Origin: Candidatus Omnitrophota bacterium
GTDB lineage: Bacteria > Omnitrophota > Gorgyraeia > 1-14-0-20-64-10
Length of the DNA: 64,000 bases
Assembly: GCA_016177405.1 (NCBI GenBank)
Contig: JACOVG010000012.1
Coordinates: forward strand, 5,385-69,384
Direction of reading: 5' to 3'
Position numbers and translations under genes: made by a program. A model generated the notes under the pieces. The model saw only the letters and a list, made by a program, of their open reading frames with translations, made no database searches and was not told the origin of the DNA. This document shows, piece by piece, positions 19 to 56,774 of this stretch. Position 1 is the first letter of the stretch. Each line of letters begins with the position of its first letter.

Positions 19-3006
19 TTGGGCGATCCTCAGGCCAGACGCCGGCCGGAGGAGGTTGTCATCGACGAAAACCCCGCCATCCTGGGGATGCTCCCAATGG
101 CTGGCCATGAAGGCGAGGTCAGGGTGCGCCGGATTCTTCACCCCGGAGAGAAGATCCAGGTGTGGGCCGTGGTGGCGCCGGCCAGGAGTCAAAGGGAGCC
201 GGGCCAGGAACCGCAGGTCCAATTTTCTCTTTGGTGGTCGGGCGAGCCGATCGAAACAGCCCGCCATTATCCGATGCGGCTTTATGCGGCCCTGCCGGAC
301 GGCTCCCGTCTCTACTACGGCGAGACCTCCTCCCCTTCTGAAGCCGAAGGCCGGCTGATCTTGAGCACCCGGGTGTTGAGTCCCTCCGGCGAGTGGCTCC
401 GCGGCGCCCCCCCTTATCTGGAGCCGTTCCTTGAATTCCAGAGCGGCTTGGAGGAGGCCACACCCGAGCGCCTGGCCGCCTCCCTCCTTCATTACCGGGA
501 GGGTCTTCGGGAGCTTTCGCCCCAACAGCAGTTTGAGCGCAGCTTCGTGGCCGAACGCCTGGTCCAGGCCCTGGAGGAGGGATTGAAACCCTTCTCCGAA
601 CTGTTCGGCAAATTGGCCGACCTCGTGGAAGGGCCCGCGGGAGACGGACCTCTTTGGACGAGCGATCTCGCCCGGGTGATGAGCGACCTTCGGCTTTACC
701 GGCCGGATCTCACCGAGCGGCTTCACCGCTATCTGGTGGAGATCGCCGTCCTCTCCCAGGAGAGCTCGCCGCAGGCGACGCAGGCGGCGATCAAGGTCTT
801 GAGGGCCTCCGACATCGGGGAGGTGGTGCTGGTTGCCCTGGAGACCAACTTCACCTCCTCCACCGGCGGCCTGGGGCTCTACATCCGGGAGCTCTCTTCG
901 GCGTTGGCCGGGCTTGGGATCAGCGTCACGGTGGTGACGCCTCTTTTGGCCGAGGATAAAGAGAGGATCGTGAAGGACGTCAAGTTCCAAGACACCGGAA
1001 AGAGCGTCACCGTCAAATTCCTCGATGAGGAAAAAGGCAAAGGCGCCACGGGCGAGCCCCTCTATGGGGAGGAGTGGGCGGTGGGCAAGATTCACGAGGC
1101 GCGCGTCGGCGTGGTTCGCCTTTTAGGGATCGAGCAGGATAAATATTTCCAACGGCTCAAGGGCGGCAAGGGAAGTCTCTACCTTGACAGCGAGGACGAT
1201 TTTGACAAGGCCTTCCGGCTGCGCGCGGCCCGGATGCTCTCGCTGGGGGCTCTCCTTGCCTTGAGGGAGATGAACATCCACGCCGGCATCATCCTGACCA
1301 ACGACGGCTTCAGCTCGTATCTGCCCCTCTATCTGGAGGAGGGTGACGACGTGGATCTTGGAAACAGTTTCCGAAGAGACCCGCGGTTAAAAGACGCGGA
1401 AACGGCCCACGTGATCCATACCGCCCACGCCGGCTACCAGTTCATCGTCCGTGACCCGCGTCACCGGGATCAAAAGCTCCTCCACGATCTGGGGCGGGAT
1501 CTCTCCCTGCGCCACATCCCTGACGAAGAGGATCGTTCGCGGCGCCGCGCCCAGCGGCTTCACGCGCTGGTCAACCCCGGCAACCCCCAGGAGATCAACG
1601 CCCTGCAGACGGCGGTCACAAAGGCCTCGCGGGTGGTGACGGTCGGCCGAGGGTATCTGGACGACACCTTGGACCCCGCCCAGACAGAGGCGTTTCGGGG
1701 GATAGACCAGACGCTTCGAGCCAAGCGGGACTTGGGCCGCTACACCGCCATTCCCAACGGCGTGGACACGGTCGGCAGGCAGAAGAAATTATTTAAGGCC
1801 AGTCTCTTGGAGATGGGGCACGAAGCAGACAGGCGGGGGTTTGCCAGGCGCATCTTCGAGGTGATCCTCCCCGAAAGAAAGAGGGCGCTTCAAGAGGCCT
1901 TTGGGCTTGCCTGGGAAGGCCGCGACACCTTCATCTACTCGATGCTGGCGAGGATTGACCGGACCAAGGGATTTCACCTGCTCACCAAGGAGGTCTGGAG
2001 CGCGCAGCATCCAGGCGAGCTTCGGGTGATGGAACCCTGGCTGCAGGACCGCTTTAAAGGGGATGTGGTTTATTCCCTTTCCGAGAAGGAGCGGGAGAAG
2101 CTCCTTGCCTACGCCAAGGACAATGGTCGAACCACTCTGCGTGCCCTGGAGGCGGCCTTTGTTTTGATGCCGGAGCTTCAAGTGGTGTTGGCCGGTTCTG
2201 CGGGGGAACCCTTCCTGGATAAGCAATTCAGAGAGATCGCCCAGCGGTTTAACCTTCGAAACCTTCCCCGGCGCCTGGCTTATCATCCCGCTCGGATTGA
2301 ACCGTCCGACTCCCGCTACCATCTGATCTACACCGGATCCACCCTCTTCGGTCAGCCCTCCGAGGCCGAGGCCTTTGGATTGGCGGCACGGGAGGCGGAG
2401 GCCGGAGGCGTGCCCAGCCACCGGCATCGCAGCGGCGGGCTTCGGGATGGGGAGATCCGCCTGGAAGGGGTGGAGGAGGGCTTTGAACCGTTCCACCCGG
2501 TCGCGTGGCTTGCCTCGTTGCGGCATCTCTATTCCGTCTACAAGGAGAACAGGTCTCTCTGGGACGAGTTCAGATTCAGGGCGCTCACCCAGGACAACCG
2601 CTGGCTCCGGCCTGCCAAGGAGCATCTGTGGCTCTTTCGCCGAATGCGGCAGGAGCGTTTTCAGAGGCCGCCGGCCGATCCTTATGTGGAGATTGACCTG
2701 CCGGCGCTGGAGGTGGCCGCCGCTCTTCACCGGGCGGAGAGGTCGAACCAGGATCCTGCCAACACCCTGGCACAAGATGGATTCACTCTGGAAGAGGCGG
2801 TGAACATCGCGCTGACGGCTCTTGCGCGGTCCAGCCAGGAGGCGCTGATCAGGGCCTTGAGGGAGAAGCACCTGAAGACCCTGGCGGCCATCAAGGAGAA
2901 GATTCCAGACGATCTGCGCCAGCGGCTGAATCAAGCGGCGGCAGGGGCCGGCCTGGAGGAGCCGCTTTACATCATTGATTCTCCCGATCTCCTCCAGGCC
3001 GCGTAA
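19..3006 (+). CDS. GT5 glycogen/starch-synthase-like glycosyltransferase with N-terminal extension of about 270 aa. May be 5'-partial, since the frame is open to the window edge and the ORF-track start is TTG.
   Basis: GT5 N-terminal motif LVALETNFTSSTGGLGLYIRELSSALAGLGISVTVVTPL, compare KTGGLGDV. Conserved blocks HAGIILTNDGFSSYLPLYL, NGVDT, and QPSEAEAFGLA...GGVP...SGGL, compare PSRFEPCGL...TGGLADTV. Contains two [SAT]GLEE motifs: FQSGLEEATP and AGAGLEEPLY near the C-terminus. Confidence 0.6.
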   Translation: MGDPQARRRPEEVVIDENPAILGMLPMAGHEGEVRVRRILHPGEKIQVWAVVAPARSQREPGQEPQVQFSLWWSGEPIETARHYPMRLYAALPDGSRLYYGETSSPSEAEGRLILSTRVLSPSGEWLRGAPPYLEPFLEFQSGLEEATPERLAASLLHYREGLRELSPQQQFERSFVAERLVQALEEGLKPFSELFGKLADLVEGPAGDGPLWTSDLARVMSDLRLYRPDLTERLHRYLVEIAVLSQESSPQATQAAIKVLRASDIGEVVLVALETNFTSSTGGLGLYIRELSSALAGLGISVTVVTPLLAEDKERIVKDVKFQDTGKSVTVKFLDEEKGKGATGEPLYGEEWAVGKIHEARVGVVRLLGIEQDKYFQRLKGGKGSLYLDSEDDFDKAFRLRAARMLSLGALLALREMNIHAGIILTNDGFSSYLPLYLEEGDDVDLGNSFRRDPRLKDAETAHVIHTAHAGYQFIVRDPRHRDQKLLHDLGRDLSLRHIPDEEDRSRRRAQRLHALVNPGNPQEINALQTAVTKASRVVTVGRGYLDDTLDPAQTEAFRGIDQTLRAKRDLGRYTAIPNGVDTVGRQKKLFKASLLEMGHEADRRGFARRIFEVILPERKRALQEAFGLAWEGRDTFIYSMLARIDRTKGFHLLTKEVWSAQHPGELRVMEPWLQDRFKGDVVYSLSEKEREKLLAYAKDNGRTTLRALEAAFVLMPELQVVLAGSAGEPFLDKQFREIAQRFNLRNLPRRLAYHPARIEPSDSRYHLIYTGSTLFGQPSEAEAFGLAAREAEAGGVPSHRHRSGGLRDGEIRLEGVEEGFEPFHPVAWLASLRHLYSVYKENRSLWDEFRFRALTQDNRWLRPAKEHLWLFRRMRQERFQRPPADPYVEIDLPALEVAAALHRAERSNQDPANTLAQDGFTLEEAVNIALTALARSSQEALIRALREKHLKTLAAIKEKIPDDLRQRLNQAAAGAGLEEPLYIIDSPDLLQAA

Positions 3007-3024
3007 GCTGAACGGGGGTAAAAC

Positions 3025-3044
3025 CCTGCCTGCCGGCAGGCAGG
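3025..3044. repeat. Perfect 20-bp GC-rich palindrome CCTGCCTGCCGGCAGGCAGG, 19 bp after the stop of the preceding gene. Putative terminator or attenuator hairpin, but no U-tract.
   Basis: Read directly: reverse complement of GGCAGGCAGG equals CCTGCCTGCC. Located in the 75-bp intergenic gap. Confidence 0.5.
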
Positions 3045-3081
3045 CTGGCATTCCTCACACCAAATTTGCTAGAATAACGCT

Positions 3082-5015: not shown

Positions 5016-5019
5016 CCCC

Positions 5020-7387
<2,368 letters not shown>

Positions 7388-7394
7388 TCCCGCC

Positions 7395-9178: not shown

Positions 9179-9683
9179 CGTGACAGCGGCTCCATCCGCC
9201 CGGCGCCGTCCCGTCGGGTGGCTCATCGCCTGCATCCTTTTTGGGATTTACGTGAGCCTCAAACTTCAGGGTTCCTGGTTCTCCTTTCAGGCCCACCGGC
9301 TGGAGCTGAAGCTCGACGCGATCCGGCCGGAGCTTTCGACCCTGGTCATGCACGAACAGATGAAGACCACCCATGCCGCCTGCCTGGAGGCCCTCGGCCA
9401 GGCGCGGTCTCAAGAGCTTTCGGCCGAGCCCTTCTTGAGGTTCCTTTCCCGGGAGGTGCCCGCCTCCATCGCGATCGAGCGGCTCGAGGTTTCCCAGGCG
9501 ATGGGGCTTAAGGTCCGGGGCAGCTGCCTGCCCGGCATCAGGCCCGCGGAGGAGCCGATCCTGCTGTGGGCCGAGAAGCTCCGGCAAGAGGGCTTCGACG
9601 TGCAGGTGAGGTTCATCATCCCGGACTCCAAGGTCACGGGGCTGTGGCGCTTTGAGCTGAAGGGAGAGAAGCCCCATGGTTGA
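9144..9683 (+). CDS. Hypothetical single-pass membrane protein, PilN/PilO-like. The start is more likely GTG at 9180, just past the kdsD stop.
   Basis: One hydrophobic helix WLIACILFGIYVSL after a basic N-terminus, then a soluble domain. No HAD motifs, so it is not KdsC. Position between kdsD and lpt genes. Confidence 0.4.
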   Translation: MSRTSSRPGWFSVTAAPSARRRPVGWLIACILFGIYVSLKLQGSWFSFQAHRLELKLDAIRPELSTLVMHEQMKTTHAACLEALGQARSQELSAEPFLRFLSREVPASIAIERLEVSQAMGLKVRGSCLPGIRPAEEPILLWAEKLRQEGFDVQVRFIIPDSKVTGLWRFELKGEKPHG

Positions 9684-10545: not shown

Positions 10546-10605
10546 ACGGCGGCGGGGTTGATTCCGGGCGTAAGGTGCGTTAAAATCAAAGGTTCAATCA
10601 ATCAG

Positions 10606-11451: not shown

Positions 11452-12184
<733 letters not shown>

Positions 12185-12195
12185 CAGAAGAGAGA

Positions 12196-12513: not shown

Positions 12514-12515
12514 GA

Positions 12516-20704: not shown

Positions 20705-21328
20705 ATGAAGAATAAGTTTTGGGTGTTGGTTTTTCTTGTCCTTTTCGGCTGGGCGGCCTTGAGTTTCGCCCAGGAGACCGTCTGGCTGGACGACGCCGTG
20801 GCCCCCGGTGGTGCCACCGAAGGCAGCTGGCTCTGGGAGGATTCCGCCGAGGCCAGCGGCGGCAAGGCCCACGCGCATCCCTCGGCCAAGGGCCAGCAGT
20901 CTCACGGCATCGGCTTGGCGCCCGCCCTCCTGCCGGCCAACGGCATGATCAGCCAGACGGTCTGGCTGGACCCCCAGGACCCGCCCCGGGGGATCATGCT
21001 CAAGGTGAAAACCGAGACCGGCGAGGAAGCCGGCGTCTACTGGGAAGGGGAAGAGGAGGTCTTTGTCCCGGCCGACGAGGAGGAGGTTTTCTACTACGGC
21101 CTTCTGCCCGAGCTGGGCAAGTGGGTCACACTGGAGGTGCTGGCCGAGGATTTGGGGCTGGAGGACGAAAAGATCGCCCAGATCACCTTTGTGACCTTTG
21201 ACGGCCGGGTTTTGTGGGACAAAACGGTCCTCACCGAGGCGCCACCGGCCGAGGAGGTCGAGTTCTTCCCGGATCTTTCCCCGCCGGTTCCGCAGGAAGA
21301 GGCCCCGCTCCCGGGGAATATTGAATAG
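20705..21328 (+). CDS. Secreted hypothetical protein (signal peptide, acidic, Pro-rich C-terminus)
   Basis: Signal peptide MKNKFWVLVFLVLFGWAALSFA-QE, RBS GAGGTG upstream. No recognisable domain. Confidence 0.55.
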   Translation: MKNKFWVLVFLVLFGWAALSFAQETVWLDDAVAPGGATEGSWLWEDSAEASGGKAHAHPSAKGQQSHGIGLAPALLPANGMISQTVWLDPQDPPRGIMLKVKTETGEEAGVYWEGEEEVFVPADEEEVFYYGLLPELGKWVTLEVLAEDLGLEDEKIAQITFVTFDGRVLWDKTVLTEAPPAEEVEFFPDLSPPVPQEEAPLPGNIE

Positions 21329-35900: not shown

Positions 35901-38900
35901 GTGGGTTTCCGCCAACCTGCAGGATGAGACCAAGCTGGAGAACGTTGAGAACCGCCAGAGCTGGCTTAGGTCCGGCGTCAACGCGGCCCAGACGAACGGC
36001 ATGGTTGACGCAACCATTTTTCAGCGGCTGGAGGAAGTCTACAGCGACGCTCCGGTGGCACCCGGCCTGCCCAGCTCCCTTGGCTTTCATTGGGTGCGCA
36101 ACCGGATCCTCCGCCACCTGGTCGAGACGGTTGGGGTCCCGGCAGGCGGGGTTCCGTATGACCGCTGGTACATCGAGCCGGACTATGCCCTGGACGGCAA
36201 GCCGCACACGGTGGAGGAGATGGCCTATCTTTCCTTCATGTCCTGGATGAGCGCCCAGGCGCACGGCTTTCCCTTGGGGCCGGTTGTCCCCAGCTACGGG
36301 AATGTCCACGGCGCCTCGGCGGGCAATCCGTCTCTTGCCCTGGCCGGTGTCCACCAGTACGCGGCCCAGGCGGCGACCCTTTACGGGCAGCCCTTGCCGC
36401 CAGAGCTTCTGGCGATATCCCGGAAGACCCCCCGCGGCTATTCCGACCTGGTCACTTCGGTTGTCGTGAATTTCAAGGATCAAGCGTTGGCGCAGGAGAT
36501 CGTGAAACTCTTTCCTGCCGACGGCCAGCGGACGGCCGCGGAAGAAGAGAGGATGAGGAATTTCGCGCTGGAGCAGTTAAGAAACATTCCAGCCGGCGTG
36601 CTCGGCACGCTGAAACAGGCGGAGCTGGCCATCCTCGAAGAGGTAGGGTTGGCCAAGAAAGAAGCGCGAGATCCCAGGCCGCTTGAGGAGTCGAGCCCAG
36701 AGGTGGCCAGGCGCCTGAAGGAGATTACCACCCAGATGGACGGGAAGATCCAGGCGATGGATCTTAGGCGGCGGGCGGCCATCACCACCCACGCGGCCAG
36801 CGGCCTAAGCGCCGCGCAGTTGAAGGCGGCGCGCGAGGCCGGCATCTGGATTGCCAACAAATCCACCGAGCCTCAAAACATCGTCCTGCGAGTTTTGTCC
36901 CTCTTTGACAAGATCTCCAGCGATGAAGTCGCCGGTTTGGACGCGCTGGCTAAACTCCCTGGAGCTGTCGAGATTTGGAAGGCCCATACCCACGGGATGC
37001 CGGCCCACCAGCGCGAGGAGCTGGCGGGCCGTATGGCCGCGCTGTACCAACAGATGTACGACGGGGTGGTGGAGCGGGCGGTCAAAGCGGCCAAAACTCC
37101 CGAAGAAGCACGGAAAATCCAGCTGGTGACCAAAAGCTACGGCCGGGTCTTTCCCTGGTTCTGGGATCCGCAGGCCGGCTGGTCCATGAATGAGCCGGGC
37201 TTAAGTGACTGGACCAGCGAGTTCGATTGGCTGACCAGCACCCACGGGCGGTACATGTTCGCCCTTCGGAATCCGGATGGGACGCTTCGCTTCCCGAACG
37301 CCCTCACCTGGGGGCTCGATCCGCTGGTGGTGGAGATCTCCCAGCACCTGATTGAGCAGACGATACCCTTCTACCATCGGCCCGATGTCATGAACGCCGA
37401 GGGGGCCGCCCAGGAGTACCGCGATTTCATGGCCGCCAAAACCACCGCCGGTGCGCCGGCCGAAGCCGACCATTGGACCGACAAGCCCCAAGGGCCGAAA
37501 TTGGACGACGCCGGGCTGGAGGAGAGCAACATCGCGAAGGCGAAGGGGCTGGGGAGTATCTTCTGCTTCGACTTTCTTGAGAACATCTCCGATGGCTTGA
37601 TCGAGGCCGCGATCCAGGGGGGCGCCACGGAGTTCACCATGAACCCCTATTCGACAGGGAATTACATCCAGCACCTCCTGACCCTTGCCACCGACGCGGG
37701 CCGCCAAAAGGCCGAGGCCCTCCAGGGGATACAGACTACGGAGCAATGGACAGGGTTCAAGAAGGAGGTGACCGATCTGGTCAAGGCAAAGGATAAGATA
37801 GGGCTGGCGCTGAAGGCGGCGATAGAGCCCTCACCGGATGTGAAGCCGGAGACCGAGCTGGCTCTAGCCAAGGCAGTTGCCCAGGCGATGCTGGCCGAGG
37901 CCGGTGTCGTGAAAGGGATGATGGAGCAATTGTCCCGGGAAGGGAAAAGCGGCGAAGAGGCGTACTGGGTCATCACCAAGTATTTTGCCGGAAAGATTGC
38001 CAGGCGGCTCAAGCCGATCTTTGATGGCTCCCAAGAGAAAACCGGCTACGTCTCCATCGAGGTGGATCCGCGGATCGAGCGGGAGGATTTTGCCGAAAGC
38101 CGCATGGAACCGGGAGCGGCGCGAGATAGAACCACTCGGCATCTTTGGATGGCGGACCGGATGCAGACAGAAACCAGGGATCTGGCCGGGATTGCCTCCA
38201 ACATCCTGGTCAAGGTTCCTGACACCGAGGCAGGGATCGCCACTGTTGGCGTGGTGGATGCCAACTACAATGTGACCCTGGCTTTTGTCGACGATGACGG
38301 TCGGGATGCCATTGCCGCTTTCGAGAAGAGGGGCGATTTGGCCCACCGCCTGCGCGTATCGCCCTTCGCCAGCCGGAACGCCGTCTACTTTGAGGAGTTC
38401 TGGGGCGATCTGATGAAGGAAGCCGACGGCTCCCAGGTGATTGACGGCCACGCCTGCACCATCGCCAATCTTTTCGATGTCTTTGAGGCACTCGGCAGCT
38501 ACGCGGACGGCGCCATCTGGTCCAGTCTCGGCATGAAGGTGAAGGGGGACCCGGGCGAGCTGTACGCCAGGTACGTGGTCGGTGTCGGGATCTTGAACGC
38601 CCCGCCGGAGACGGCCCGCGATTTCAACCGGGCCTCCTTTGAAATCCGGCGCTGGCTGGGTGAGAAAAGTTTGGTGGAGATCCTGACCGATTATTTCCAA
38701 GCGGTGAAAGAGGGCAAGGTCCCCTCGGCGACAGCGAAGTTCCCGGCCTTGATGGACGGTTCGATCTCTCCAGAGGATCTGGCGCGGCAGGCCGTTGGCA
38801 AATGGCACGCCTTGAGGAGTCGGCCGGTGTACCAGGGCCGCTTGACTCAAGTTCTTGAGAGGGTTAAGCAGTTGGAGCTGGCGGCCCAAAAGCCGCGTCC

Positions 38901-39597
38901 CTTCACCCGAGAGGCGCTCGCGATTGTTCAGGCCAGATTGGCGAGCGGCGAGATGATCACCGAGAAAGAGCTGATGCGGGTTGTCTTGAAGAAGGAAGGG
39001 GAGGAGAAGTTCATCGCCCCCTTTGCCGGCGCGATCAAGGCGCTGGATGCCGCCATGCAGCAGATGAAATCCGGCCTGGAGGAGACGGCGGTGCGGGAGG
39101 CCCTGCGGGAGTTCAATGCCTTGAGCGAAATCTTGAGGGTTAGGCAGGGTCATGTCACCGGAAGGGGGCGGCCGATCCTGGTGAATCTTTCCGGTCCCGA
39201 CGGGCCAAGACTTATCGCTGTGGCCCAAGCCCTCGCGCTCATCAGGGCGAAGAATGATAGCTTGAACGAGATTGACTTCCGAGTGGTTGCTCCGGAGTCT
39301 CTCGTGGAGAATCTGCTTGACGGCTTGAAGGGAATCAATCCAGAAGCTGTTTCCTATTGGCTGTTTCCACGCGTCATCTCCTACGACGACTCTGCTCCCG
39401 CGAAACAAAAAGCCGCCTATCAAGATGCCAGGAAAGAGGCCCTGCGGCAATTGGGCGTTCGTGCCGCTTTCAAAGAGATTCGCGAGTTCACCAAGGACTT
39501 GGCGCTTGAGCTTAGGGGCTATTTCCAGGGTGGCGGCCTGCGGTTTGCCACGGAAGAGGCCTTCAGGCGGTTCGAGGCGCTTCTTAAGGCGGCGTAG
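32908..39597 (+). CDS. Giant multidomain protein 2 (2229 aa). Signal peptide, GlpX-type (class II) fructose/sedoheptulose-bisphosphatase-like domain, transaldolase-like domain, and large unknown regions. Carries 5 [SAT]GLEE motifs.
   Basis: Signal MRSKLLKILVARVALFTSVITWAAPGYA-LRQ. GlpX-like: DPVDGTT, VWVLNRPHGQEIIDLARKAGAKVRLYQDGTV, GRVGATEGKMVAAPLR. Transaldolase-like: GATEFTMNPYS, YVSIEVDPR, ILVKVPDTEAGIATVGVVDANYNVTLAFV...RVSPFASR. RBS GGGAGAAA 35 nt after the giant 1 stop. Confidence 0.7.
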   Translation: MRSKLLKILVARVALFTSVITWAAPGYALRQTGLEESPKERKRLEVALLGTGNPGQDLKNLGAAANRLATDLGFLPAAGLEEGSLGLDDLIKQAGAGSEDERSRAIQALGRFFSGITVDRKRLASFDGGRRVLPDLTPVTSIGALGVVLSNMVGSGDKIGCDSASSSRMNPAVQVVFRVAGHNWWNRAGEGKREGVPDEAQIPPMEKPLVFSAGWVTLYTANDPVDGTTRTSKGQDGGVTLFMVTPDFGRRIPDELRLENVIYAGQKADFSLKRQKFDEIVRRIAASNRKSPSDYEVWVLNRPHGQEIIDLARKAGAKVRLYQDGTVQPSLYLAAFPERNIIVAGRVGATEGKMVAAPLRNVHYPGGGRVWMKARIISENSAYEVAEKRQGGIVYYEPRLDPDGKKVAAKSLTNGNKLSLKDKEALKEAGYAEEEVARIEDGNWELELEDLAPAAGDLSLSYITEPMTGLDGQPLFDWEAEIHGVQKAEGVVSHTLDFAADGIWLVTHRYPDAGLGRIAAQLHEQERVVNLLRKIVFEDPSHNLRQAAQAALREYLPHALGLDFQRRAGLAIAGVAAGLEEAKPVIGYQPKLTLEQNLKAQALFGMGTGSGVTKVDVKYQIRNTAGDPAAFSRLFGELLALSQGDMNKLARIFEEAVQADYVSEEQLAAALQRLAADPGVPYNQPPVSYYNPARYVYARLRNMRGGRMTGWVDAVLEPVAVRVRRHASGKDLSDVRQKAQVVQALQKSWGSGRQEAGSNLPTGPFRYEIFWDSLVEKDGEYYLTLELLLDGGKDYAQGVVLELQVVIPAEGELQQYQNPYTLEIPPDRRAPFSYGLLDSLHFVNTRFPEWRPTAQRDIYDARMKAMQETGVKRQILRPSVRQGNNPRFFEPFFRAYLAGRVPLIYHIVHTRSEREYGNQGGVPSIGNLASAIVRRGGLGVTASWLIENPKEAEPLVGQELVFSYELDHHRIDNVKDAAGFAADFEYLVKAYQEALVTGWVSANLQDETKLENVENRQSWLRSGVNAAQTNGMVDATIFQRLEEVYSDAPVAPGLPSSLGFHWVRNRILRHLVETVGVPAGGVPYDRWYIEPDYALDGKPHTVEEMAYLSFMSWMSAQAHGFPLGPVVPSYGNVHGASAGNPSLALAGVHQYAAQAATLYGQPLPPELLAISRKTPRGYSDLVTSVVVNFKDQALAQEIVKLFPADGQRTAAEEERMRNFALEQLRNIPAGVLGTLKQAELAILEEVGLAKKEARDPRPLEESSPEVARRLKEITTQMDGKIQAMDLRRRAAITTHAASGLSAAQLKAAREAGIWIANKSTEPQNIVLRVLSLFDKISSDEVAGLDALAKLPGAVEIWKAHTHGMPAHQREELAGRMAALYQQMYDGVVERAVKAAKTPEEARKIQLVTKSYGRVFPWFWDPQAGWSMNEPGLSDWTSEFDWLTSTHGRYMFALRNPDGTLRFPNALTWGLDPLVVEISQHLIEQTIPFYHRPDVMNAEGAAQEYRDFMAAKTTAGAPAEADHWTDKPQGPKLDDAGLEESNIAKAKGLGSIFCFDFLENISDGLIEAAIQGGATEFTMNPYSTGNYIQHLLTLATDAGRQKAEALQGIQTTEQWTGFKKEVTDLVKAKDKIGLALKAAIEPSPDVKPETELALAKAVAQAMLAEAGVVKGMMEQLSREGKSGEEAYWVITKYFAGKIARRLKPIFDGSQEKTGYVSIEVDPRIEREDFAESRMEPGAARDRTTRHLWMADRMQTETRDLAGIASNILVKVPDTEAGIATVGVVDANYNVTLAFVDDDGRDAIAAFEKRGDLAHRLRVSPFASRNAVYFEEFWGDLMKEADGSQVIDGHACTIANLFDVFEALGSYADGAIWSSLGMKVKGDPGELYARYVVGVGILNAPPETARDFNRASFEIRRWLGEKSLVEILTDYFQAVKEGKVPSATAKFPALMDGSISPEDLARQAVGKWHALRSRPVYQGRLTQVLERVKQLELAAQKPRPFTREALAIVQARLASGEMITEKELMRVVLKKEGEEKFIAPFAGAIKALDAAMQQMKSGLEETAVREALREFNALSEILRVRQGHVTGRGRPILVNLSGPDGPRLIAVAQALALIRAKNDSLNEIDFRVVAPESLVENLLDGLKGINPEAVSYWLFPRVISYDDSAPAKQKAAYQDARKEALRQLGVRAAFKEIREFTKDLALELRGYFQGGGLRFATEEAFRRFEALLKAA

Positions 39598-39608: not shown

Positions 39609-39637
39609 TTGACCGGCATCGGTGCCGGTGCTAGAAT
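39609..39637 (+). promoter_or_regulatory. Near-consensus sigma70-type promoter TTGACC-17 bp-TAGAAT
   Basis: TTGACC at 39609-39614, 17-nt spacer containing the small palindrome CCGGCAtcggTGCCGG, TAGAAT at 39632-39637. Lies 120 nt upstream of the 39759 gene. Confidence 0.55.
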
Positions 39638-39758: not shown

Positions 39759-40235
39759 ATGGGACAGGGTAAAGCAGGGTGGTGGGTCGCGGGTTTGGCG
39801 GCGGCGGTGGTCTTTATCAGCATCGGTTACGGCATGGGGCGCAGGGCCGGGACGGCCGCCTCATCGGCCTCGCTGGACTTCGCCGGCGCTTCGGCCCCGG
39901 CGATTTCGGTGGAGCCCATCCAGCCGCAGGCGGAATTGGCGGCCATCACGGTGAGCCCTTCGACGCCCGCCGAGCTCGCGGCCATTCAACCCGCCGCCGC
40001 GGAAGCCTCCGCGCCGTTGCCCTTGGAGGAATCGGCCCGGAATCGGAACATTCAGCTGGCCCTGAAGGCCGCCGGGTTTGACCCGGGTTCCGCGGACGGG
40101 AAGATGGGACCCCGCACCCAGACGGCGGTTCGGGATTTTCAGAAAGCCCAGGGGCTGACACCCGACGGCAAGGTGGGCCCCAAAACGTGGAGCAAGCTGG
40201 AAGCCTTTCTTAATAAAAGCGCGTCAAACGACTAA
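39759..40235 (+). CDS. Membrane-anchored peptidoglycan-binding (PG_binding_1) domain protein
   Basis: N-terminal TM WWVAGLAAAVVFISIGY, Ala/Pro linker, C-terminal NIQLALKAAGFDPGSADGKMGPRTQTAVRDFQKAQGLTPDGKVGPKTW. Confidence 0.75.
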   Translation: MGQGKAGWWVAGLAAAVVFISIGYGMGRRAGTAASSASLDFAGASAPAISVEPIQPQAELAAITVSPSTPAELAAIQPAAAEASAPLPLEESARNRNIQLALKAAGFDPGSADGKMGPRTQTAVRDFQKAQGLTPDGKVGPKTWSKLEAFLNKSASND

Positions 40236-40256
40236 GCAGGGAGATTCCAACAGGCG

Positions 40257-40967
40257 ATGAGACACTTCATGAAGACGGGGGTCGGGATTTTTGCTCTCAT
40301 TCTGGCGCTGGCGGGCTGCGGCATCAACTTCTACGCGGGCAGGCCCAGCGACGTCAACCGCATCGGCCAGCTCATGGCCGAGCTGGATCGGATCAAGACG
40401 CAGAAGGATCAGGAGTCCGATCAGCTTCGGGAGGCCAAATCCCTTCTGGAGAGGCGTCTTCAGAAGGAGATCTCCGAGAAGCAGGTGAAGCTGGAGATGG
40501 CCGAGCGGGGCTTGGTCCTCACCTTTGTCGCCGAGGTGCTCTTTGATTCCGGCAAGGCGGCCGTTCGCCCCGAGGCGGGCCAGACCCTGGCGAAGGTGGC
40601 CTCCGTGATTCGGGAGAAGGTCTCCGACCGGAACGTCGGCATCGAGGGCCACACCGACAACGAGCCGATCAAGCATTCCGGATGGAAATCGAACTGGGAG
40701 CTTTCCACCTCCCGGGCCACCAGCGTCCTGCACTTTCTGGAGGACAATGGCGTCAGCCCCAAGCTTCTGGTGGCTTCCGGCTACGGCGAGCACCGGCCCG
40801 TGGCCGGCAACGACGCGGTTGAGGGACGGCAGAAGAACCGCCGCGTGGAGATCGTGATCCTGCCCAAGAAGCTGACCAAGATGGAGCAGGCGGTCCTGCG
40901 GAAGGCCTCGGAGTCCGGAGAGCCTGAAGCGGTTCGCAAGGCCGAGGCGCTGGAAGAGTACAAATGA
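40257..40967 (+). CDS. OmpA/MotB-family lipoprotein (OmpA C-terminal peptidoglycan-anchoring domain)
   Basis: Lipobox LALAGCG, coiled coil, OmpA_C blocks GHTDNEPIK...NWELSTSRATSV...GYGEHRPVA...NRRVEIVIL. Confidence 0.8.
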   Translation: MRHFMKTGVGIFALILALAGCGINFYAGRPSDVNRIGQLMAELDRIKTQKDQESDQLREAKSLLERRLQKEISEKQVKLEMAERGLVLTFVAEVLFDSGKAAVRPEAGQTLAKVASVIREKVSDRNVGIEGHTDNEPIKHSGWKSNWELSTSRATSVLHFLEDNGVSPKLLVASGYGEHRPVAGNDAVEGRQKNRRVEIVILPKKLTKMEQAVLRKASESGEPEAVRKAEALEEYK

Positions 40968-42971: not shown

Positions 42972-42972
42972 G

Positions 42973-46857: not shown

Positions 46858-46949
46858 ATAGTCAGTAATTTACCTTGTTTTTTTGCCCAGAATCAGCCAT
46901 ACTTTCTGTAAGCTCCGGTAAATCGTCCTAGAGCTGCCGCAGCAACCCT

Positions 46950-49900
46950 ATGAGAACTAACACGTTAGCCGGCCTTGTCCGCCGATTTTTCGCTCTTTGG
47001 CTAATTCTGGCCCTCGCCTGCCCAGCCCCTGCCTACAGCCTCCGCGAATCCCAGGAAGACACCACCCTCGACGAGCTCCCCCGCGCCCTCACCGGCTTGG
47101 AGGAGACTCCATTACCCCTGCCTGCGGCATCCGGCAATGGCGATGAGATTCTCCGAGAGATTGCCGAGGCCAGGCGGTTGGCCGAGGGAAACACCCTTGA
47201 TCAGAATGTAACCACGATAGCCAGCGTGGCAGTTGACGGTTCTGAAAAGAGCATCCGAATGAGCTGGCAGGATGGGACGTGGGAAGATCTTTTCGACTCC
47301 TTCTCGGTAGCCGTCAAGACCTATCCCTTGCTAAGGCCCCTTGTTCCGGGCCCGGAGACAGTAACCGAGCAAGTCAGGCAAAAGATAGAAGAGGCGAAGG
47401 GCCTGGAGATCCCCGTTTTTAAAGGAGACGTCGGAGAGTTTTTCCTTTCTGTCGGGTCCGCGGCGCGGCTAAAAGAAGAACTACTGGTTTTAGGCCGTAA
47501 GCCCCCAAGCCGGCAGGAACTTGATGAGCTTGCGAGCTCTTTGCGGGAGGTGCTTGAAGAACCGCGTTCAGGCCGGACGGCCCGCCAGCGTTTGGACGCC
47601 CTGCGCGCTCAAGCGGGCGAGAAAGAGCGGCGTTCCCTCGAAAAAGCCATCCAAGCGATGGATGAGATGGTCAGGGAGTTTCTTGCCGACAACGAGACCA
47701 TCTGGAAGGCCATCGCCGTCTTAGAAAAGGCGGTCGGCGGCGATTTAAGAAGAGTTCCTGGCGGAGTGGCTGGCGACCTTCTTCGCCCGCTCACCCAAAG
47801 GGCCGGCGATTGGTTTTTATCCGGCCTTCTGCTTCGGGCCCTGCTTCAGGACTCTCCGGGCGAGAAGACGCTGGAGATAGAAAAGATCAAAAAGCGCCTG
47901 GCTCTCATGGAAGAGGAAAAGCGGTCGGTCTTGCGCTACCGGCTTTCCCGCCGCGCCGACGCCCGGGCGCTCCGGGCGGTCTTTTACGATGCCTATCGGC
48001 TGGCATTGTCGGCTGCCCTCGAGGCCTTGACGGAAGAGCTTTCCCAGGCCGACCCTGCCGACGAAGGTAGAGCCGTCGATCTTGAGATAAGAATCTGGCT
48101 GATGGGGTTTGAGGCGCTTCATCTGGTGAAGGAAGAAGCCGCCACCCAGGCGGTTTGGAGCTCCGCCAGAGAGGCCAGGCCAAGCGCCGGCCCCGTTAAC
48201 AACATCCGAAGGATGACTCCCTCGGTCGGCGTTTTGTTCCTCCGCCCCGATGGCACCTTGAGACGGTTTGTCCCAGGCGGCGGCAGCTTCCACGCCCCGC
48301 ACATGGTCGGTTATTTCACGCCCACCCGGTTTGCCCAGTGGTATGAGCCGGGCGACCGGATCTACCTTCTGGCCAACACCTTGACCGGCGCGCTTGCCCT
48401 GGATCAGTTCCGTTCTTATCTGGAATCGGTGAACCATCTCCAGGCGGTCTTCCCCGATCTGCCGACACCCGGTTTGGGGATAGCCACGGAAGGAGGGATC
48501 ACCCTCTACCATCCCAGGGCCTCGGCAGGTGATCCGTCGGGCTGGGAGAGGATCTGCGAGCCCGTCGCTTCCGCCCTCTCCTGCTACATTGAATTCTTCG
48601 ACCAGATGCACAAGGCGATTCTTAACGACGACGATAAATGGCGAAGGAAACTTGCCAGGGGTCAGTTCGGGAATCGATGGCAGAGCGTGGTGCGCGACGC
48701 CTATCCCGAAAAGAAATATCCCGGCCTCCTGGCCCAGGTTGCGAAGGATGTGACCATCCAGTTTGGAAAGAGGATTAGCAACCTGCGCGACGTAAAAAGC
48801 GGCGAGCTGGTTTACGAGATTGGCTTTCTGGAGGGGCAGGTCAATCGGATTGTGGGAGAGCGGATCACGCAGGGCCTTCTGGGAGGTTTTTTCACCGAAG
48901 AGAAGGTGTCCGGCCTGACCGATCGGCCATTCCCCGCGCCGACACCCCCCGGCGCTCCTGCCTCTCCGGCTGTCCCCCCGGCGGAAACTGTTCAGGAATC
49001 TCCCTTTGCCGCCTCCGCGGACGAAAGAGAAGTTTTTCCTGCCGGTCTCCTTCAGGAAGCCCCGCCCCTTACGGATCCCGACCCCGTCCGCCGCTTACTG
49101 GATGAGATGACCGGCCTTGCCTTCGCCGGGGGATATCTCCCGGACATGGTGAGCACGGAGTACGAGGACTTGGAGAGAAGGCAAATCCGCCTTGTCATGG
49201 ATGCCGGAGCATCTCGGGCGTTGCCCTTCCTCTTGGTCAGTCTGGAGTTCCCGGAGACCAAACTCTCCCCCCTTGCGCCGGAGCCCCGCGTAGGCGGTCG
49301 GCCGGTTGAGCGCCTTATCGTGAAGCGGATACGCAAGGAAGAGGCCTCGAGGATCGTGGAGGGCATGCCTGGCGCGGCCGTCTTCAAGGAGGTTATTCCC
49401 AAGGTGCAGCGCCTTTTGGATGCCGATGCCCCTCCCAAGGAGATGGAGGGGCCTGTCAAAGAGCTTCTCCCGGCCCTCGTCAAGTTTCTTGAGCAAGGGG
49501 GTGGCGGCAGAGGGCCTATGGAGCAGGCGGCCCAACGGCTTGAAACCGACCCAGCTTTCCGGGAAGTGATGGAGTTTCTGAAAAGGCGTTTGGACGTCAT
49601 GATGGAGGGGGATCTGCTGAACGAAGAGCTTTGGAGGAAGCGTGGAAAACTGGAGGCCGGTTGGGCGCGAGAGAGGATCGCCGCGTTTCGGAGCCGGCTC
49701 TCCGATCCGCGCATTCAGGCATGCCTGGACTGCGATCTTGAGAAGCTCCCTCTCCAGGGAAAGGTTTCCTACGACTTGGTTGCCGCGCCGGTTGCCGACG
49801 CGGAGGGCGCCGCCAGGCAAGGAGAGCTGCTGGCCCTCATGGAGCGGACAGATCTCAAGGCCCTGCGCCAGAGCTATGTGGAGGCCCTGCGCCTGGCCTG

Positions 49901-55900: not shown

Positions 55901-56774
55901 GACCCTCTCGACCACCGACGGGGTTTCTCCAGATGAGGTTTTGGCTCTTCTTGACGCAGCGCTTGCTCGGCAGAAAGAGAATCCGAAGTCCCTGGGAGAG
56001 GTGGTGGCGATGGAGGACCACCTCACAGAGATGATTGCCCAGCGGCTCGAAGAATCGGCTGCCGTGGGAGAATCCGATGCCGGGCTGGAGGAGGCGAGGC
56101 CGACCCCAGCGGTGCGGATCCCGGAGGGGGATGAGGTGGTTGATCTGGGGACACTGGAGGGGGGGGAGACTCTTGGCTTATGGATTTTTCCGGGAAATGG
56201 GGAACGATCCCTGATTGGCCGGATCTTGATAGATGGAGAAGTGAAGGGCGCGGTTTTTCTAAGATTCCCCAATGAGACTGCCGTGCTGGGCGATATCCTT
56301 GTGGGTGAAGAAAAAGGGATGCCAGATCCGCTCCATCGAGGCAGAGGGGTTGGGACGAAGGTTATGGATTGGATTCTTCGAAATCGCATACCGCCCCGCG
56401 TGCGCCACCTTACAGCCGTTGTGAGGAATCCATACCTCCTGGCTCTTTTTAAGAATCTGGAAGAGAGGAAACTGCTGATGGAAGCCACGGTAAGCGGCAG
56501 AGGTTTGGACGTCTGGATAGCTGATTTCTTAAGAGAGCATGAACTGAACAGACTGCAGGATGAGTACGGGACCATTGACGTAGATTTTAGAGCGGGATTG
56601 AACTCAAACCATGTTGTTGCTGGCCCCTCGACTGGGCCCGGGGCCGGCCTGGAGGAGGCGAGGAGGGTGGAGGCGCTGTTCGCGCTGGAGCGGGCGGCCG
56701 GTGAAGCCGGCGTGCCGGCGGGCGATTCAAGCGAAAAGGCCGAGGAGGTTCGCGCCCACGGCGGCATGCTATAA
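46950..56774 (+). CDS. Giant multidomain protein 3 (3274 aa). Signal peptide, three tandem copies of a roughly 630-aa module, a charged helical region with P-x-x-F-[VIL]-x-x-L repeats, and a C-terminal GNAT N-acetyltransferase domain. Carries 3 [SAT]GLEE motifs.
   Basis: Signal MRTNTLAGLVRRFFALWLILALACPAPAYS-LRE. Module signature RFVPGGG at nt 48264, 50136 and 52098 (the third copy reads RFIPGGG). GNAT motif LHRGRGVGTKVMDWIL flanked by DAGLEEAR and GAGLEEAR. Confidence 0.75.
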   Translation: MRTNTLAGLVRRFFALWLILALACPAPAYSLRESQEDTTLDELPRALTGLEETPLPLPAASGNGDEILREIAEARRLAEGNTLDQNVTTIASVAVDGSEKSIRMSWQDGTWEDLFDSFSVAVKTYPLLRPLVPGPETVTEQVRQKIEEAKGLEIPVFKGDVGEFFLSVGSAARLKEELLVLGRKPPSRQELDELASSLREVLEEPRSGRTARQRLDALRAQAGEKERRSLEKAIQAMDEMVREFLADNETIWKAIAVLEKAVGGDLRRVPGGVAGDLLRPLTQRAGDWFLSGLLLRALLQDSPGEKTLEIEKIKKRLALMEEEKRSVLRYRLSRRADARALRAVFYDAYRLALSAALEALTEELSQADPADEGRAVDLEIRIWLMGFEALHLVKEEAATQAVWSSAREARPSAGPVNNIRRMTPSVGVLFLRPDGTLRRFVPGGGSFHAPHMVGYFTPTRFAQWYEPGDRIYLLANTLTGALALDQFRSYLESVNHLQAVFPDLPTPGLGIATEGGITLYHPRASAGDPSGWERICEPVASALSCYIEFFDQMHKAILNDDDKWRRKLARGQFGNRWQSVVRDAYPEKKYPGLLAQVAKDVTIQFGKRISNLRDVKSGELVYEIGFLEGQVNRIVGERITQGLLGGFFTEEKVSGLTDRPFPAPTPPGAPASPAVPPAETVQESPFAASADEREVFPAGLLQEAPPLTDPDPVRRLLDEMTGLAFAGGYLPDMVSTEYEDLERRQIRLVMDAGASRALPFLLVSLEFPETKLSPLAPEPRVGGRPVERLIVKRIRKEEASRIVEGMPGAAVFKEVIPKVQRLLDADAPPKEMEGPVKELLPALVKFLEQGGGGRGPMEQAAQRLETDPAFREVMEFLKRRLDVMMEGDLLNEELWRKRGKLEAGWARERIAAFRSRLSDPRIQACLDCDLEKLPLQGKVSYDLVAAPVADAEGAARQGELLALMERTDLKALRQSYVEALRLACWKKAMELQRDLETRALDYRFQRESLVTAMLALTLETGAVLSSLMQSQAGEIRANESVKRTRLATGIGVLLLNQDNSPARFVPGGGGMDLVHLMGTHYNRHSIRPWHEKGQKIVLCQLSFTGPPGMDQLAAFLDDWFYLQRGLDGNPEILLGVAAADGAMRVYRPSGPRLPAEDPVGWARVRDRVETVYGDHYNRFIDAFKKLEGSPEKGPDAALYREAGLHFRSRLLEALQESLPNPMPEQIMAKIEDRFGPDLDELAQDPRPMRVSSLLAKVKAAVSECLAAHLMESDLFVPVQVPGVTGRHKAAAGGALPAVVREILEMREKAEGGFLGPNVTAASASKLSWTEVRLWMNWTGSPEYPGGPVVLPFGSPAMRPLAPDLELLEPEVREAISRGKRWQVSRLGRDAGLKEMRGNPAISALEKLLLPFEKGELVQETEEDSKAAVKAVKERGEYAAWEKRLARDRSAPEKTKFKQWLREESYKELERILREKERKIRQKPPPKPRELLAASRAVLEYVPNKGRPDFRERPDLAPAISEAKILFEKILRLAQRIMQARVLLERAAPSGKVPAAPAISCLEPLMGDTEGWPTVSIKMRRQLENLKALSPESRVNLEEILQIVEEAREEAITWHTFLTFSRVPWAPLRLVYYDVYRSVLLDEVKRLELLAPETNGQELEWQSRAVALEIMHAELEAAFSSLLQRWARPPEEKESDQFTHPVEGSGLLVLDQALRPVRFIPGGGQFVGVTILAPYYDPIRVKEWTGEAGQAVYLYNTVSGWPAVESLDYYCAAARLFSAMYPGAALPWFGVAAPSGVRVYRPREDLASPSGLGRAYDPIAREEARFKRFTIGLDIRFLRISKEDIRFLFLARGQFLGELEKVLRDVFDEATVQEMMREVRDRLGQSIEALDPDEKNLDALGLAFARLVVSVRRLIGELAAPHLLDELFEEVQVDWEHPVQPLAIPPPAQAPPEQAVEREPETTAPAPLLLKLDDQAAEAGPPPQPMPGEAGGKPAKGSKGPQGEDVKLKAAAREIASNLAGLADAAGFRGRWVERLLAEKVRERLKGNNSWQPTNGIEPFRQVLVQGREKHHRQGVELAGAIGKCKTSEELERLKGQVDGLGDDEVDKLYEDKKRNIVHQGLAEQAVGDPVFQAWWPPNRIQAEALGLLKKNPGWTYEDLKSKLQKIRKSWEEEARQREEARMLAASERILEAAGKEPSLQGLAQERLGALAAAFLKEKPKGTPADFVAQLREMMSQEGQKKRGELKRLCLGKTQEAGVSLDWIFPSNLLELEADVYLDKDSSPSPEGFIAHLKELAKQRRWKELREIGIQANASEQFGLSFVQIEEEARGHVSAAPFTDWDQDQGAFVERLRERAAQLGEELRRDLIRRVSQAVRSALNPDYWGFEEGWLEAQAESWLTAVPLSFDPDQPEAFLRQVKLERLIREAQTAQELTEFSIPPDVVRQEAERLLAEQGIEEIKRTPIWFVDRLYKIYDAKKREEEAKKKGWAGRVGKATSSKELAELLSQPDFPEELRPVAENRQQLFLLVETARESALLRQAGFSDDELIQEAAQLLSGGEPVTPAGFVKRLHKIWREREALKRAERIEQLLAAAKADPPEGGWIFNGAELLERATGFLEFSGAREPVPADFVAQLKQEQARKKLEAEEKRVRTLVEAAQAASDRSQWPFSDAELEAMVRVFPGNDPAAFLAHLRRKIEEERVRKEEQKRREEQARLQGFLEGFNHINTERGWGVSPERALAAAQSLLRESPSATVDQMVELLEPASPEQVRQALSAWNQAADERVDFGNQEGAFTISATELLDPNLWYLTSHASVGVERIERTLEAARSNPDPEKGVKRLASVETFLEEFGQAINDLPLERGRKLDGLTPYSVFRERFMTGSDTPATRMEAVRQYLDVLKNRIRTIKQTALLRRLKEYLTGRWSIEEDREEPTASLISPDALIPLLVEDVNKGWTSLRAAKLLEAGKTFIGAHPWYPSGLLAMNVQTLSTTDGVSPDEVLALLDAALARQKENPKSLGEVVAMEDHLTEMIAQRLEESAAVGESDAGLEEARPTPAVRIPEGDEVVDLGTLEGGETLGLWIFPGNGERSLIGRILIDGEVKGAVFLRFPNETAVLGDILVGEEKGMPDPLHRGRGVGTKVMDWILRNRIPPRVRHLTAVVRNPYLLALFKNLEERKLLMEATVSGRGLDVWIADFLREHELNRLQDEYGTIDVDFRAGLNSNHVVAGPSTGPGAGLEEARRVEALFALERAAGEAGVPAGDSSEKAEEVRAHGGML

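Follow-up and report, generated by a model that had tools for sequence, protein, structure and literature searches.

Giant multi-enzyme proteins, the 'metabolic cluster' giants, have been reported from the Omnitrophota, combining ROK kinases, sugar-metabolism enzymes, WD repeats and signal peptides (bioRxiv 10.64898/2026.06.07.730766). Giant proteins of this phylum are also the subject of West-Roberts et al. 2023, as cited in the same preprint. The words motif, linker and cleavage are absent from bioRxiv 10.64898/2026.06.07.730766, which reports no punctuating signal. The locus described here lies in a stretch of 64,000 nucleotides (nt) of contig JACOVG010000012.1 (assembly GCA_016177405.1, Candidatus Omnitrophota bacterium), referred to as the window. 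Four of its open reading frames (ORFs), namely ORF A at the window edge and Giants 1, 2 and 3 (G1, G2 and G3), are punctuated by the pentapeptide [SAT]GLEE. The general form of this motif across relatives is P-A-[AST]-G-x-E-E. Similar to the Omnitrophota giants, the proteins are encoded by very long ORFs, carry N-terminal signal peptides and combine many unrelated Pfam families per chain, a likeness in the kind of architecture. They differ in length, at 0.8-3.8 thousand amino acids (kaa) against 10-147 kaa (10-40 times smaller), in having a signal peptide only, without internal transmembrane (TM) helices, and in a guanine-plus-cytosine (GC) content of ~61% against ~40%. The nearest relatives of the window by its Dxr protein are two metagenome-assembled genomes (MAGs) labelled 'Planctomycetia', followed by others including an Omnitrophota MAG. 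The literature on bacterial polyproteins and giant proteins yielded the Omnitrophota work and nothing on the motif.

Linker-embedded recognition or cleavage motifs are known from other giant modular exported proteins. The P97/P102-family surface adhesins of Mycoplasma hyopneumoniae are processed at an endoproteolytic S/T-X-F|X-D/E motif within disordered stretches. This is also a short linear motif of large exported proteins, with a small hydroxyl residue at P3, a hydrophobic P1 and an acidic P2′, and S-G-L|E-E fits it if L replaces F. The organisms and proteins are different, however, and here the putative P1 residue varies (L, A, Q, M, V), Ala dominates the first position and Gly and both Glu are invariant. 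Host targeting in the Apicomplexa relies on the Plasmodium and Toxoplasma export elements (PEXEL/TEXEL, RxLxE/Q/D). Cleavage of PEXEL after its Leu gives an N-terminus that serves as an export signal, and TEXEL can be internal. The likeness lies in a pentapeptide placed soon after a signal peptide and in the order of Leu, then an acidic residue; unlike PEXEL/TEXEL, the present motif is bacterial and has multiple internal copies at module joints. A PEXEL-like signal (R-x-L-x-[EQD], 15-30 amino acids (aa) past the signal peptide) was rejected as the residue two before L is S, A or T and never R, despite the similar position.

The multifunctional autoprocessing repeats-in-toxin (MARTX) and large clostridial toxins are autoprocessed at an inter-effector Leu by an in-line Peptidase_C80 cysteine protease domain. 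MARTX toxins are likewise giant modular secreted proteins whose modules are separated by linkers, those of MARTX being cut after Leu. The proteins described here are without the repeat-region architecture, and the MARTX sites are not an invariant pentapeptide. Autoprocessing of this type was dismissed, as C80 occurs neither in the window giants nor among the 25 commonest Pfam families of 30 relatives. Sites of type I signal peptidase and of Ser-Lys-dyad peptidases (-3/-1, A-x-A|) resemble P-A-[AST]-G|x in its Pro at -4, Ala at -3 and Gly at -1. The membrane-bound signal peptidase needs a preceding hydrophobic core, which the internal copies do not have, and the invariant Glu-Glu falls outside the rule. 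A sortase LPXTG or exosortase sorting signal does not agree with multiple internal copies, the lack of a C-terminal hydrophobic segment and C-termini that end in ..LLEAA. Searching the literature for the pentapeptides brought up Ras switch II and unrelated acronyms, and nothing else. The DxxGQEE motif (G3 motif) of Ras-like GTPases was excluded, as the AGQEE copies of a related locus (L001, below) have no D-T before them and are located outside any GTPase domain. None of the compared systems fits the motif family as a whole.

The window contains 21 copies of [SAT]GLEE in the four ORFs, where 0.14 are expected from composition. An earlier note, made from the sequence alone, had counted about 21 copies in four large proteins against about 0.1 expected. 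On recomputation the counts (two in ORF 19-3006, starting at aa 142 and aa 977, 11 in G1, five in G2 and three in G3) and the coordinates agree. The mean over 2000 shuffles was 0.136 copies, with a maximum of 3. GLEE is the most frequent 4-mer of the four ORFs by a wide margin, and every GLEE within them is preceded by S, A or T. The reported absence from housekeeping proteins also holds, with 0 copies in the 10,578 aa of the 29 other window ORFs. The note had named equal frequency in unrelated proteins of the same genome as grounds for abandoning the idea. In the six-frame translations of 141 unrelated loci (1.25 million residues), a loosened pattern matched 0.12 times per 10,000 aa, compared with 5-47 times in the giants.

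It is extraordinarily improbable that the copies are a chance or compositional artefact, or the remnant of a recent internal duplication. The proteins are rich in A, L, E and G, which would favour such an origin. Against it stand the shuffles, the flanks of the copies, which are unalignable, and BLAST, which shows no repeat family spanning the copies. Furthermore, ~35 independent proteins of other metagenomes show this punctuation. On these grounds, chance and recent tandem duplication were ruled out. The pentapeptide is enriched over composition, restricted to one set of proteins, conserved in relatives with diverging flanks and located in non-globular linkers. The data support [SAT]GLEE as a selected protein-level short linear motif, specific to the giant proteins.

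The relatives were reached by several routes (loci are given as L numbers and proteins as P numbers). Two word-indexed homology searches, with G1 aa 1-960 and with the G1 C-terminal domain, returned no relatives, and a search of this kind with the ROK module returned one match, P0028. The closest locus by the neighbouring dxr gene is L001, from a MAG labelled Planctomycetia, which is syntenic and has a Dxr 66% identical to that of the window. A giant ORF without BLAST similarity to the window giants occupies the position of G2. Its commonest 4-mer is GQEE, with seven copies of [AS]GQEE accompanied by one SGLEE and one VGLEE, and the six frames of the 21-kb locus hold no further copies. Further giants were found in metagenomes using the OmpA-like gene downstream of G2 as an anchor. 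L086 is complete, with the N-terminus ..SSAPAFALRPERAGAEEIAAQLAPAAGLEEK, and encodes five AGLEE, one SGLEE and two AGAEE. The giants of L085 (four AGAEE, one AGMEE), L087 (five AGAEE) and L090 (seven AGAEE, two AGVEE, one AGSEE) favour Ala, and L093 contains four copies of [TSA]GLES. L081 and L084 are C-terminal fragments with two and three copies.

A search of 1.84 billion representative proteins with a profile of the C-terminal domain common to G1 and G2 matched 27 proteins of 120-3468 aa, with the domain at the extreme C-terminus in all. Two of them, P0001 and P0002, are G1 (from aa 317) and G2 themselves. Nearly all of the others, although retrieved through the C-terminal domain alone, have GLEE, GAEE or GMEE as their most frequent 4-mer, and the x residues are L (75), A (15), M (11), V (4) and Q (2). 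P0028 (782 aa) has three copies of AGMEE. Beside it, a giant ORF of >3286 aa that runs off the locus (L161, 12492-22349) serves as an internal negative control with 0 motif copies. This giant of the same lineage is of another kind, with LPDG[TR] and SDGV repeats and a hydrophobic N-terminus.

The giant sequences of the relatives are otherwise mostly unalignable with those of the window. Recognisable modules in 30 relatives comprise WD40, ROK, SHMT, 2-hydroxyacid dehydrogenases, PfkB, HAD, GlpX, cupin-type GPI and HATPase_c. Modules are shuffled between proteins: G1 2041-2386 resembles part of L087, L086 2110-2498 resembles L090 74-462, and G1 3593-3784 matches G2 2055-2229 and the C-terminus of L085. 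Judged from these sequences, the motif is conserved across the lineage and defines an undescribed family of modular, putatively exported giant proteins.

The consensus over 63 copies is Pro at -2, Ala at -1, then A (45), S (12) or T (6), followed by G-x-E-E and K or A. The upstream enrichment is 4.8-fold for Pro (-2) and 4.4-fold for Ala (-1). The residue x is L in 21 of the 21 window copies, uniformly across all four ORFs. Elsewhere it is Q (L001), A (L085, L087, L090, P0008, P0012), M (P0007, P0010, P0028) or V plus L (P0023). Homologous junctions retain the motif with a changed x, as for AGLEE versus AGVEE in L087 and L090, and x also varies in the motif column before the C-terminal domain (alignment A4). 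That x differs from one relative's proteins to the next suggests that a dedicated factor, co-evolving with its substrates, reads the motif.

All 20 full-length members have a signal peptide and the sequence [ST]xP[AS][FLWY]A|L[RK][PQ], with the first motif copy 3-15 aa past the predicted cleavage site. Often there is a second copy, 13-50 residues further on. The first copies of G1, G2 and G3 start at aa 60, aa 32 and aa 48, shortly after the signal peptide, as had been noticed at the outset. The signal-peptide end is unusually conserved ([ST]W[SA]xP[AS][FY]A|L[RK][PQ]) and is found in G1, G2 and G3 (21518-21694, 32908-33000, 46950-47090), P0004-P0024, L086, L093 and L161. This degree of conservation suggests a dedicated N-terminal tag more than an ordinary Sec signal. 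A twin-arginine-like RRxF n-region is present in G3, L086, P0004 and P0008 and is absent from most members, so twin-arginine (Tat) export was discarded as a feature of the family.

The C-terminal domain comprises ~170 residues with the pattern RPILxDAxxDxR..LAQALS..DFRLV..RIVxY..GGLxFVTxEAFxRLxALLEAA. Its AlphaFold model is a confident alpha/beta, Rossmann-like fold, with a predicted local distance difference test (pLDDT) of 85.8. Foldseek of this model against the Protein Data Bank (PDB) gave no significant match; the best, at E 0.07, were generic Rossmann-like folds. The invariant ..[LF][LT]x[AS]A-COOH ending resembles C-terminal recognition tags of the ssrA/Tsp type. NCBIfam returned nothing for the N-terminal tags, the C-terminal domains or the modules lacking an assignment. 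No Pfam or NCBIfam model, PDB match or literature description was found for the motif, the tag or the C-terminal domain, in line with the first impression that the motif is not a described one.

The spacing and placement of the copies follow the modules. Successive copies are a median of 220 aa apart (interquartile range 103-421 aa), a distance that corresponds to the size of a domain. Within 25 aa of a motif lie 55% of internal BLAST alignment ends, compared with 16% for random positions. Between L086 (2113) and L090 (77) homology starts exactly at the motif and the sequence upstream is unrelated. In a 21-sequence alignment of the C-terminal region, only G-x-E-E reaches 50% consensus among the ~60 columns that precede the domain. 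In the AlphaFold2 model made with this alignment (pLDDT 85.8), TGLEE is the start of a 14-residue coil (pLDDT ~54) that joins the last aminotransferase helix to the first helix of the C-terminal domain. Nine further coil residues follow the motif, and no helix.

An excess of disorder-promoting residues and a deficit of hydrophobic ones mark the flanks of the motif (p ~1e-4), and 0 of the 21 window copies lie inside a Pfam envelope. The earlier note had placed the copies in Pro/Ala-rich linkers and proposed that they be mapped onto predicted structures. The upstream Pro/Ala enrichment, the ends of homology at the motif and the one copy modelled, located in a low-confidence inter-domain coil, agree with that placement. 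Its view of a short linear motif at module boundaries stood. One of its four large proteins, ORF 19-3006, is open to the window edge. The motif is supported as a linker element at module joints.

A passive structural element without a reader, in which a linker ending or helix start is inherited during module shuffling, is quite unlikely. It would consist of a Pro-Ala coil, a Gly hinge and an acidic N-terminal helix turn, and would aid independent folding in very long chains. S/T-x-x-E is the classical helix capping box. The inter-domain coil, the upstream Pro/Ala, the dispensability of the motif at some junctions and the long motif-free stretch of G3 are all in its favour. However, Ala and not Ser/Thr takes the would-be capping position in 45 of 63 copies, and the one confident model continues the motif with coil in place of helix. 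Linkers elsewhere do not converge on one invariant pentapeptide at ~100-fold or greater enrichment, and nothing in a passive element would account for the concerted change of x among L, A, Q and M in all copies of a protein.

At the DNA level, the string GGNYTGGAGGAR has 19 matches on the + strand, all of them in-frame motif copies, and 1 on the - strand. In L001 all 9 copies lie in one frame of one ORF. Synonymous variants do occur within the motif DNA (CTC, TTA, TTG, GGA, GGG, GAA, AGC/TCC). The near-constant DNA string to which attention had been drawn is real beyond the amino-acid requirement, as judged by codon counts in the motif copies of the window, L001, L085-L087 and L090 against a background of amino acid and dipeptide context. 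GCC encodes 39 of the 42 Ala residues at position 0 (60% in the background, p ~1e-5), GCG 16 of the 18 Ala residues at x (34%, p ~1e-5) and GAG 50 of the 58 first Glu residues (86%, against 57%, p ~1e-5). Of the 58 x codons, 50 (86%) end in G; with GAG as the first Glu codon, most copies therefore contain GGAGG. Possibly, the reuse of junction DNA in module shuffling is the cause of the constraint.

The translation of the motif nevertheless matters. This is shown by the exclusivity of frame and strand, by Ser encoded through both TCC and AGC and Thr through both ACG and ACC, by the limitation of x to L, A, Q, M and V, and by Glu at the last position although GGAGG needs only G there. It is unlikely that the nucleic acid is itself partly selected, as a ~15-nt recombination microhomology (GCCGGC-NNG-GAGGAR) or as a GGAGG ribosome pause at module ends, roles which could coexist with one in the protein. 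The peptide would then in part be a by-product. Codons more uniform than their context predicts, the GGAGG core completed by the G-ending x codon, clearly shuffled modules and homology that breaks exactly at the motif would all be accounted for. The copies are, however, all in frame on the coding strand and none is intergenic, the mixed Ser and Thr codons do not agree with a conserved DNA unit, L086 and L093 use GAA or are without GGAGG, and 15 nt is short for homologous recombination.

The giants contain 107 further GGAGG, neither enriched nor avoided (z = -1.4; housekeeping genes z = +1.2), and a Shine-Dalgarno-like string lies upstream of only 11 of 32 genes. No start codon, and no consistent M, V or L, follows the motif. 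These observations also speak against selection at the DNA level, and on them an internal Shine-Dalgarno sequence or internal start was rejected. A DNA-level repeat (uptake sequence, Chi-like site or repetitive extragenic palindrome) was rejected as well, with 19 of 20 matches on the coding strand and in frame.

In ORF A, a perfect 13-nt inverted repeat (2949-2961 / 2989-3001, 27 nt between arms) is formed by the DNA of the last AGLEE and that of the C-terminal LLQAA just before the stop. As a general rule, that C-terminal LLEAA DNA is the reverse complement of motif DNA was rejected, being true only in ORF A.

It is plausible, though short of probable, that the motif is the processing site of an exported polyprotein, read by one co-evolving trans-acting factor which would most likely be a protease. 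A family member would consist of a signal peptide (..PAFA|LR[PQ]), the first motif copy, a string of unrelated modules each introduced by a copy in a Pro/Ala-rich coil and, often, the C-terminal domain ending in ..LLEAA. The exported precursor would be read at the motif by a single factor whose pocket for x co-evolves with its substrates. This factor would most likely be an endopeptidase cutting beside x (..A-[AST]-G|x-E-E or x|E-E). A cut at G|x would obey the small -1/-3 rule of Ser/Lys-dyad peptidases, and every module released from such a polyprotein would begin with the same acidic N-terminus.

Processing is favoured by the resemblance of Pro -4, Ala -3 and Gly -1, for a cut at G|x, to the signal-peptidase site P-A-F-A|L-R. 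Serine and cysteine endopeptidases typically have L, M, Q, A or V at P1 or P1′ of their sites. The existence of the reader, its protease nature and the cut position are inferred from the sequences.

Several observations weigh against this processing model. Pfam detects no protease domain in the window giants, and there is no protease among the 25 commonest Pfam families listed for 30 relatives. The earlier note had advised a search for a dedicated protease gene elsewhere in the genome; in the window and the related loci no lineage-specific protease gene was found, and the nearby ClpP and RseP are housekeeping proteins in conserved operons. Enzymes that depend on ATP and sugar phosphates would hardly be expected at an exported location. 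The motif is also not needed at every boundary, as seen from the ~3000 aa of G3 without any copy and from degenerate junctions in a few members (ATGPET in P0011, AASVEE in P0012, KLLESV, and ADKLEE in L086). In L087 and L090, some of the copies within the small C-terminal region fall in well-conserved sequence, and the codon constraint is not predicted by a purely protein-level signal.

Alternatively, the motif may be recognised without being cut, as a docking, sorting or modification signal, which is possible if rather doubtful. The first copy would tag the protein for a second step of export or for retention, much as an acidic signal that follows the lipobox serves the export of lipoproteins in Bacteroidota. 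Internal copies would provide multivalent binding to a receptor, scaffold or envelope partner, or their Glu-Glu would be modified. The fixed place of the first copy past the signal-peptidase site, often with the second soon after, agrees with such a role, and so does the failure to find a protease. A protein-specific x implies a co-evolving reader and says nothing of cutting. Peptidoglycan-binding and OmpA-like genes also lie beside the giants in several relatives; this OmpA-like synteny is biased because the OmpA-like gene was the search anchor. An N-terminal sorting tag, however, leaves the 3-11 internal copies at module joints unaccounted for, and no candidate receptor was identified.

The features of the window are collected in Table 1. 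ORF A (995 aa as called, 19-3006) has no upstream stop codon as far as window position 1 and is thus probably the C-terminal part of a fourth, larger giant that the window truncates. A glycogen/starch-synthase-like GT5/GT4 domain is present, and the protein ends in ..LLQAA without the full C-terminal domain. The three other giants each begin with a signal peptide of the Sec type. The only credible TM segment in each of G1, G2 and G3 is the N-terminal hydrophobic one, which fits an exported soluble precursor. Modules recognised by Pfam are few: PfkB and aminotransferase in G1, GlpX and transaldolase in G2, and GT5 in ORF A. With the GxGD motif of PfkB and the SK...GxRxG motif of the aminotransferase intact, both modules of G1 look like working enzymes. 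G3 has neither a confident Pfam domain nor the shared C-terminal domain, and phmmer against PDB returned nothing for G3 or for a 958-aa module of G2. A single-sequence AlphaFold model of G3 aa 3001-3274 (pLDDT 44) was set aside as too poor. The GNAT domain of G3 had been described as bracketed by two AGLEEAR copies. The two copies are present; the GNAT assignment is only a sub-threshold Acetyltransf_1 match (E 8.6e-4, 20.0 bits against the Pfam cut-off of 20.7).

A recurrent W-G-P-G-P-D-F module occurs twice in G1 (aa 85-307 and 1645-2000; window 21770-22438 and 26450-27517) and in relatives (L085/P0012 aa 672, P0020 aa 55, P0022 aa 104). It starts directly after the motif (GLEEWGPGPDFRL..), finishes with ..FDT[SA][AG][ED]DP..W.P and has no Pfam match. 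G2 is identical to the public protein P0002 of the representative library, whereas exact look-ups in the contig index gave no match for G2 or PurA. The public protein P0001 (3468 aa) is identical to G1 from aa 317 on. Its start is called at this internal codon (CTG read as Met), omitting window 21518-22465, so that the signal peptide and the first three motif copies are absent. Public annotation of such genes can in this way conceal the N-terminal tag.

Table 1. Giant ORFs, motif copies and associated features; positions are window coordinates, or protein positions where marked aa.
Feature	Position	Strand	Remarks
ORF A	1..3006	+	Probable C-terminal part of a family member, open to window edge; starch-synthase-like GT5; ends ..DLLQAA
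ORF A motif copy SGLEE	442-456	+	
ORF A motif copy AGLEE	2947-2961	+	
Giant 1 (G1), 3784 aa	21518..32872	+	Signal peptide aa 1-51 (..CPAFA|LRP), 11 motif copies
G1 domains (Pfam)	aa 971-1243; aa 3219-3581		PfkB; class I/II aminotransferase
G1 C-terminal domain	aa 3593-3784		Ends ..ALLEAA
G1 copy 1 SGLEE	21695..21709	+	8 aa past predicted signal-peptidase site
G1 copy 2 SGLEE	21770..21784	+	
G1 copy 3 SGLEE	22439..22453	+	
G1 copy 4 TGLEE	23639..23653	+	
G1 copy 5 AGLEE	25694..25708	+	
G1 copy 6 TGLEE	25973..25987	+	
G1 copy 7 AGLEE	26450..26464	+	
G1 copy 8 SGLEE	27518..27532	+	Opens ROK-kinase-like module common to L087, P0006, P0013, P0028
G1 copy 9 SGLEE	29243..29257	+	
G1 copy 10 AGLEE	30194..30208	+	
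G1 copy 11 TGLEE	32294..32308	+	Opens coil between aminotransferase and C-terminal domain
Giant 2 (G2), 2229 aa	32908..39597	+	Signal peptide aa 1-28 (..APGYA|LRQ), 5 motif copies
G2 domains (Pfam)	aa 134-373; aa 1667-1902		GlpX FBPase; transaldolase
G2 C-terminal domain	aa 2055-2229		Ends ..ALLKAA
G2 copy 1 TGLEE	33001..33015	+	3 aa past predicted signal-peptidase site
G2 copy 2 AGLEE	33139..33153	+	
G2 copy 3 AGLEE	34636..34650	+	
G2 copy 4 AGLEE	37510..37524	+	
G2 copy 5 SGLEE	39070..39084	+	Exact start of homology with G1 C-terminal domain
C-terminal domain in window	32294-32869 and 39070-39594		Also in P0003-P0027
Giant 3 (G3), 3274 aa	46950..56774	+	Signal peptide aa 1-30 (..APAYS|LRE), 3 motif copies
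G3 copy 1 TGLEE	47091..47105	+	
G3 copy 2 AGLEEAR	56079..56093	+	Precedes weak GNAT-like segment
G3 copy 3 AGLEEAR	56643..56657	+	42 aa from C-terminus
PG_binding_1 membrane protein and OmpA-family lipoprotein (coiled-coil segment)	39759..40967	+	Directly downstream of G2

The window is a bacterial chromosome segment of 63% GC with nearly all genes on the + strand and no Rfam match anywhere. The neighbours of the giants are ordinary housekeeping genes of a diderm bacterium: kdsB, pyrG, kdsA, kdsD, lptC/A/B, tig, clpP, serA, purA and an H+-pyrophosphatase before G1; uppS, cdsA, dxr, rseP and ispG between G2 and G3; and proS, nusA, infB, trpS and scpA after G3. The genes of G1 and G2 are 35 nt apart, and a 190-nt AT-rich spacer precedes the pair. 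Just upstream of G1, a 207-aa secreted acidic protein (20705-21328) has an ordinary signal peptide (..SFA|QE), no motif copy and no Pfam or NCBIfam match. The PG_binding_1/OmpA pair also directly follows the giant in L001 (6576-7781), the lipoprotein being 67% identical between the window and L001. An OmpA-like gene, there the search anchor, lies shortly downstream of the giant in L081, L084-L087 and L090. A sigma-70-like promoter match is located at 39609-39637, inside a 160-nt spacer.

The giant genes of uncultured bacteria are a current puzzle, and the motif is a countable signal that parses such proteins into modules. The family is defined by three parts: the ..PAFA|LR[PQ] tag, the [AST]GxEE joints and the ..LLEAA C-terminal domain. 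The motif gives domain boundaries for the structure prediction of thousands of 'dark' protein residues and is a search key for relatives beyond the reach of sequence similarity. As a protein-specific x is the signature of a co-evolving reader, this reader may be found through specificity residues that track x across genomes. If the reader is a protease, the family would be a rare case of bacterial polyprotein maturation, and it would have to be explained why enzymes that depend on ATP and sugar phosphates cross a membrane.

A broader scenario, considered somewhat unlikely, is that an uncultured lineage related to the Planctomycetes, Verrucomicrobia and Chlamydiae (PVC) exports cytoplasm-type sugar and amino-acid enzymes as Sec-targeted polyproteins. 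These would be cut at [AST]G-x-EE by a dedicated, co-evolving protease with x as the specificity residue. Modules with a common acidic N-terminal tag would be delivered outside the cytoplasm, to an enlarged periplasm or internal compartment, the cell surface, or a host or prey cell, and the junction DNA would double as a reshuffling seam. If true, bacteria would have an equivalent of viral polyprotein maturation, coupled to a new N-terminus that acts as a signal in the manner of PEXEL.

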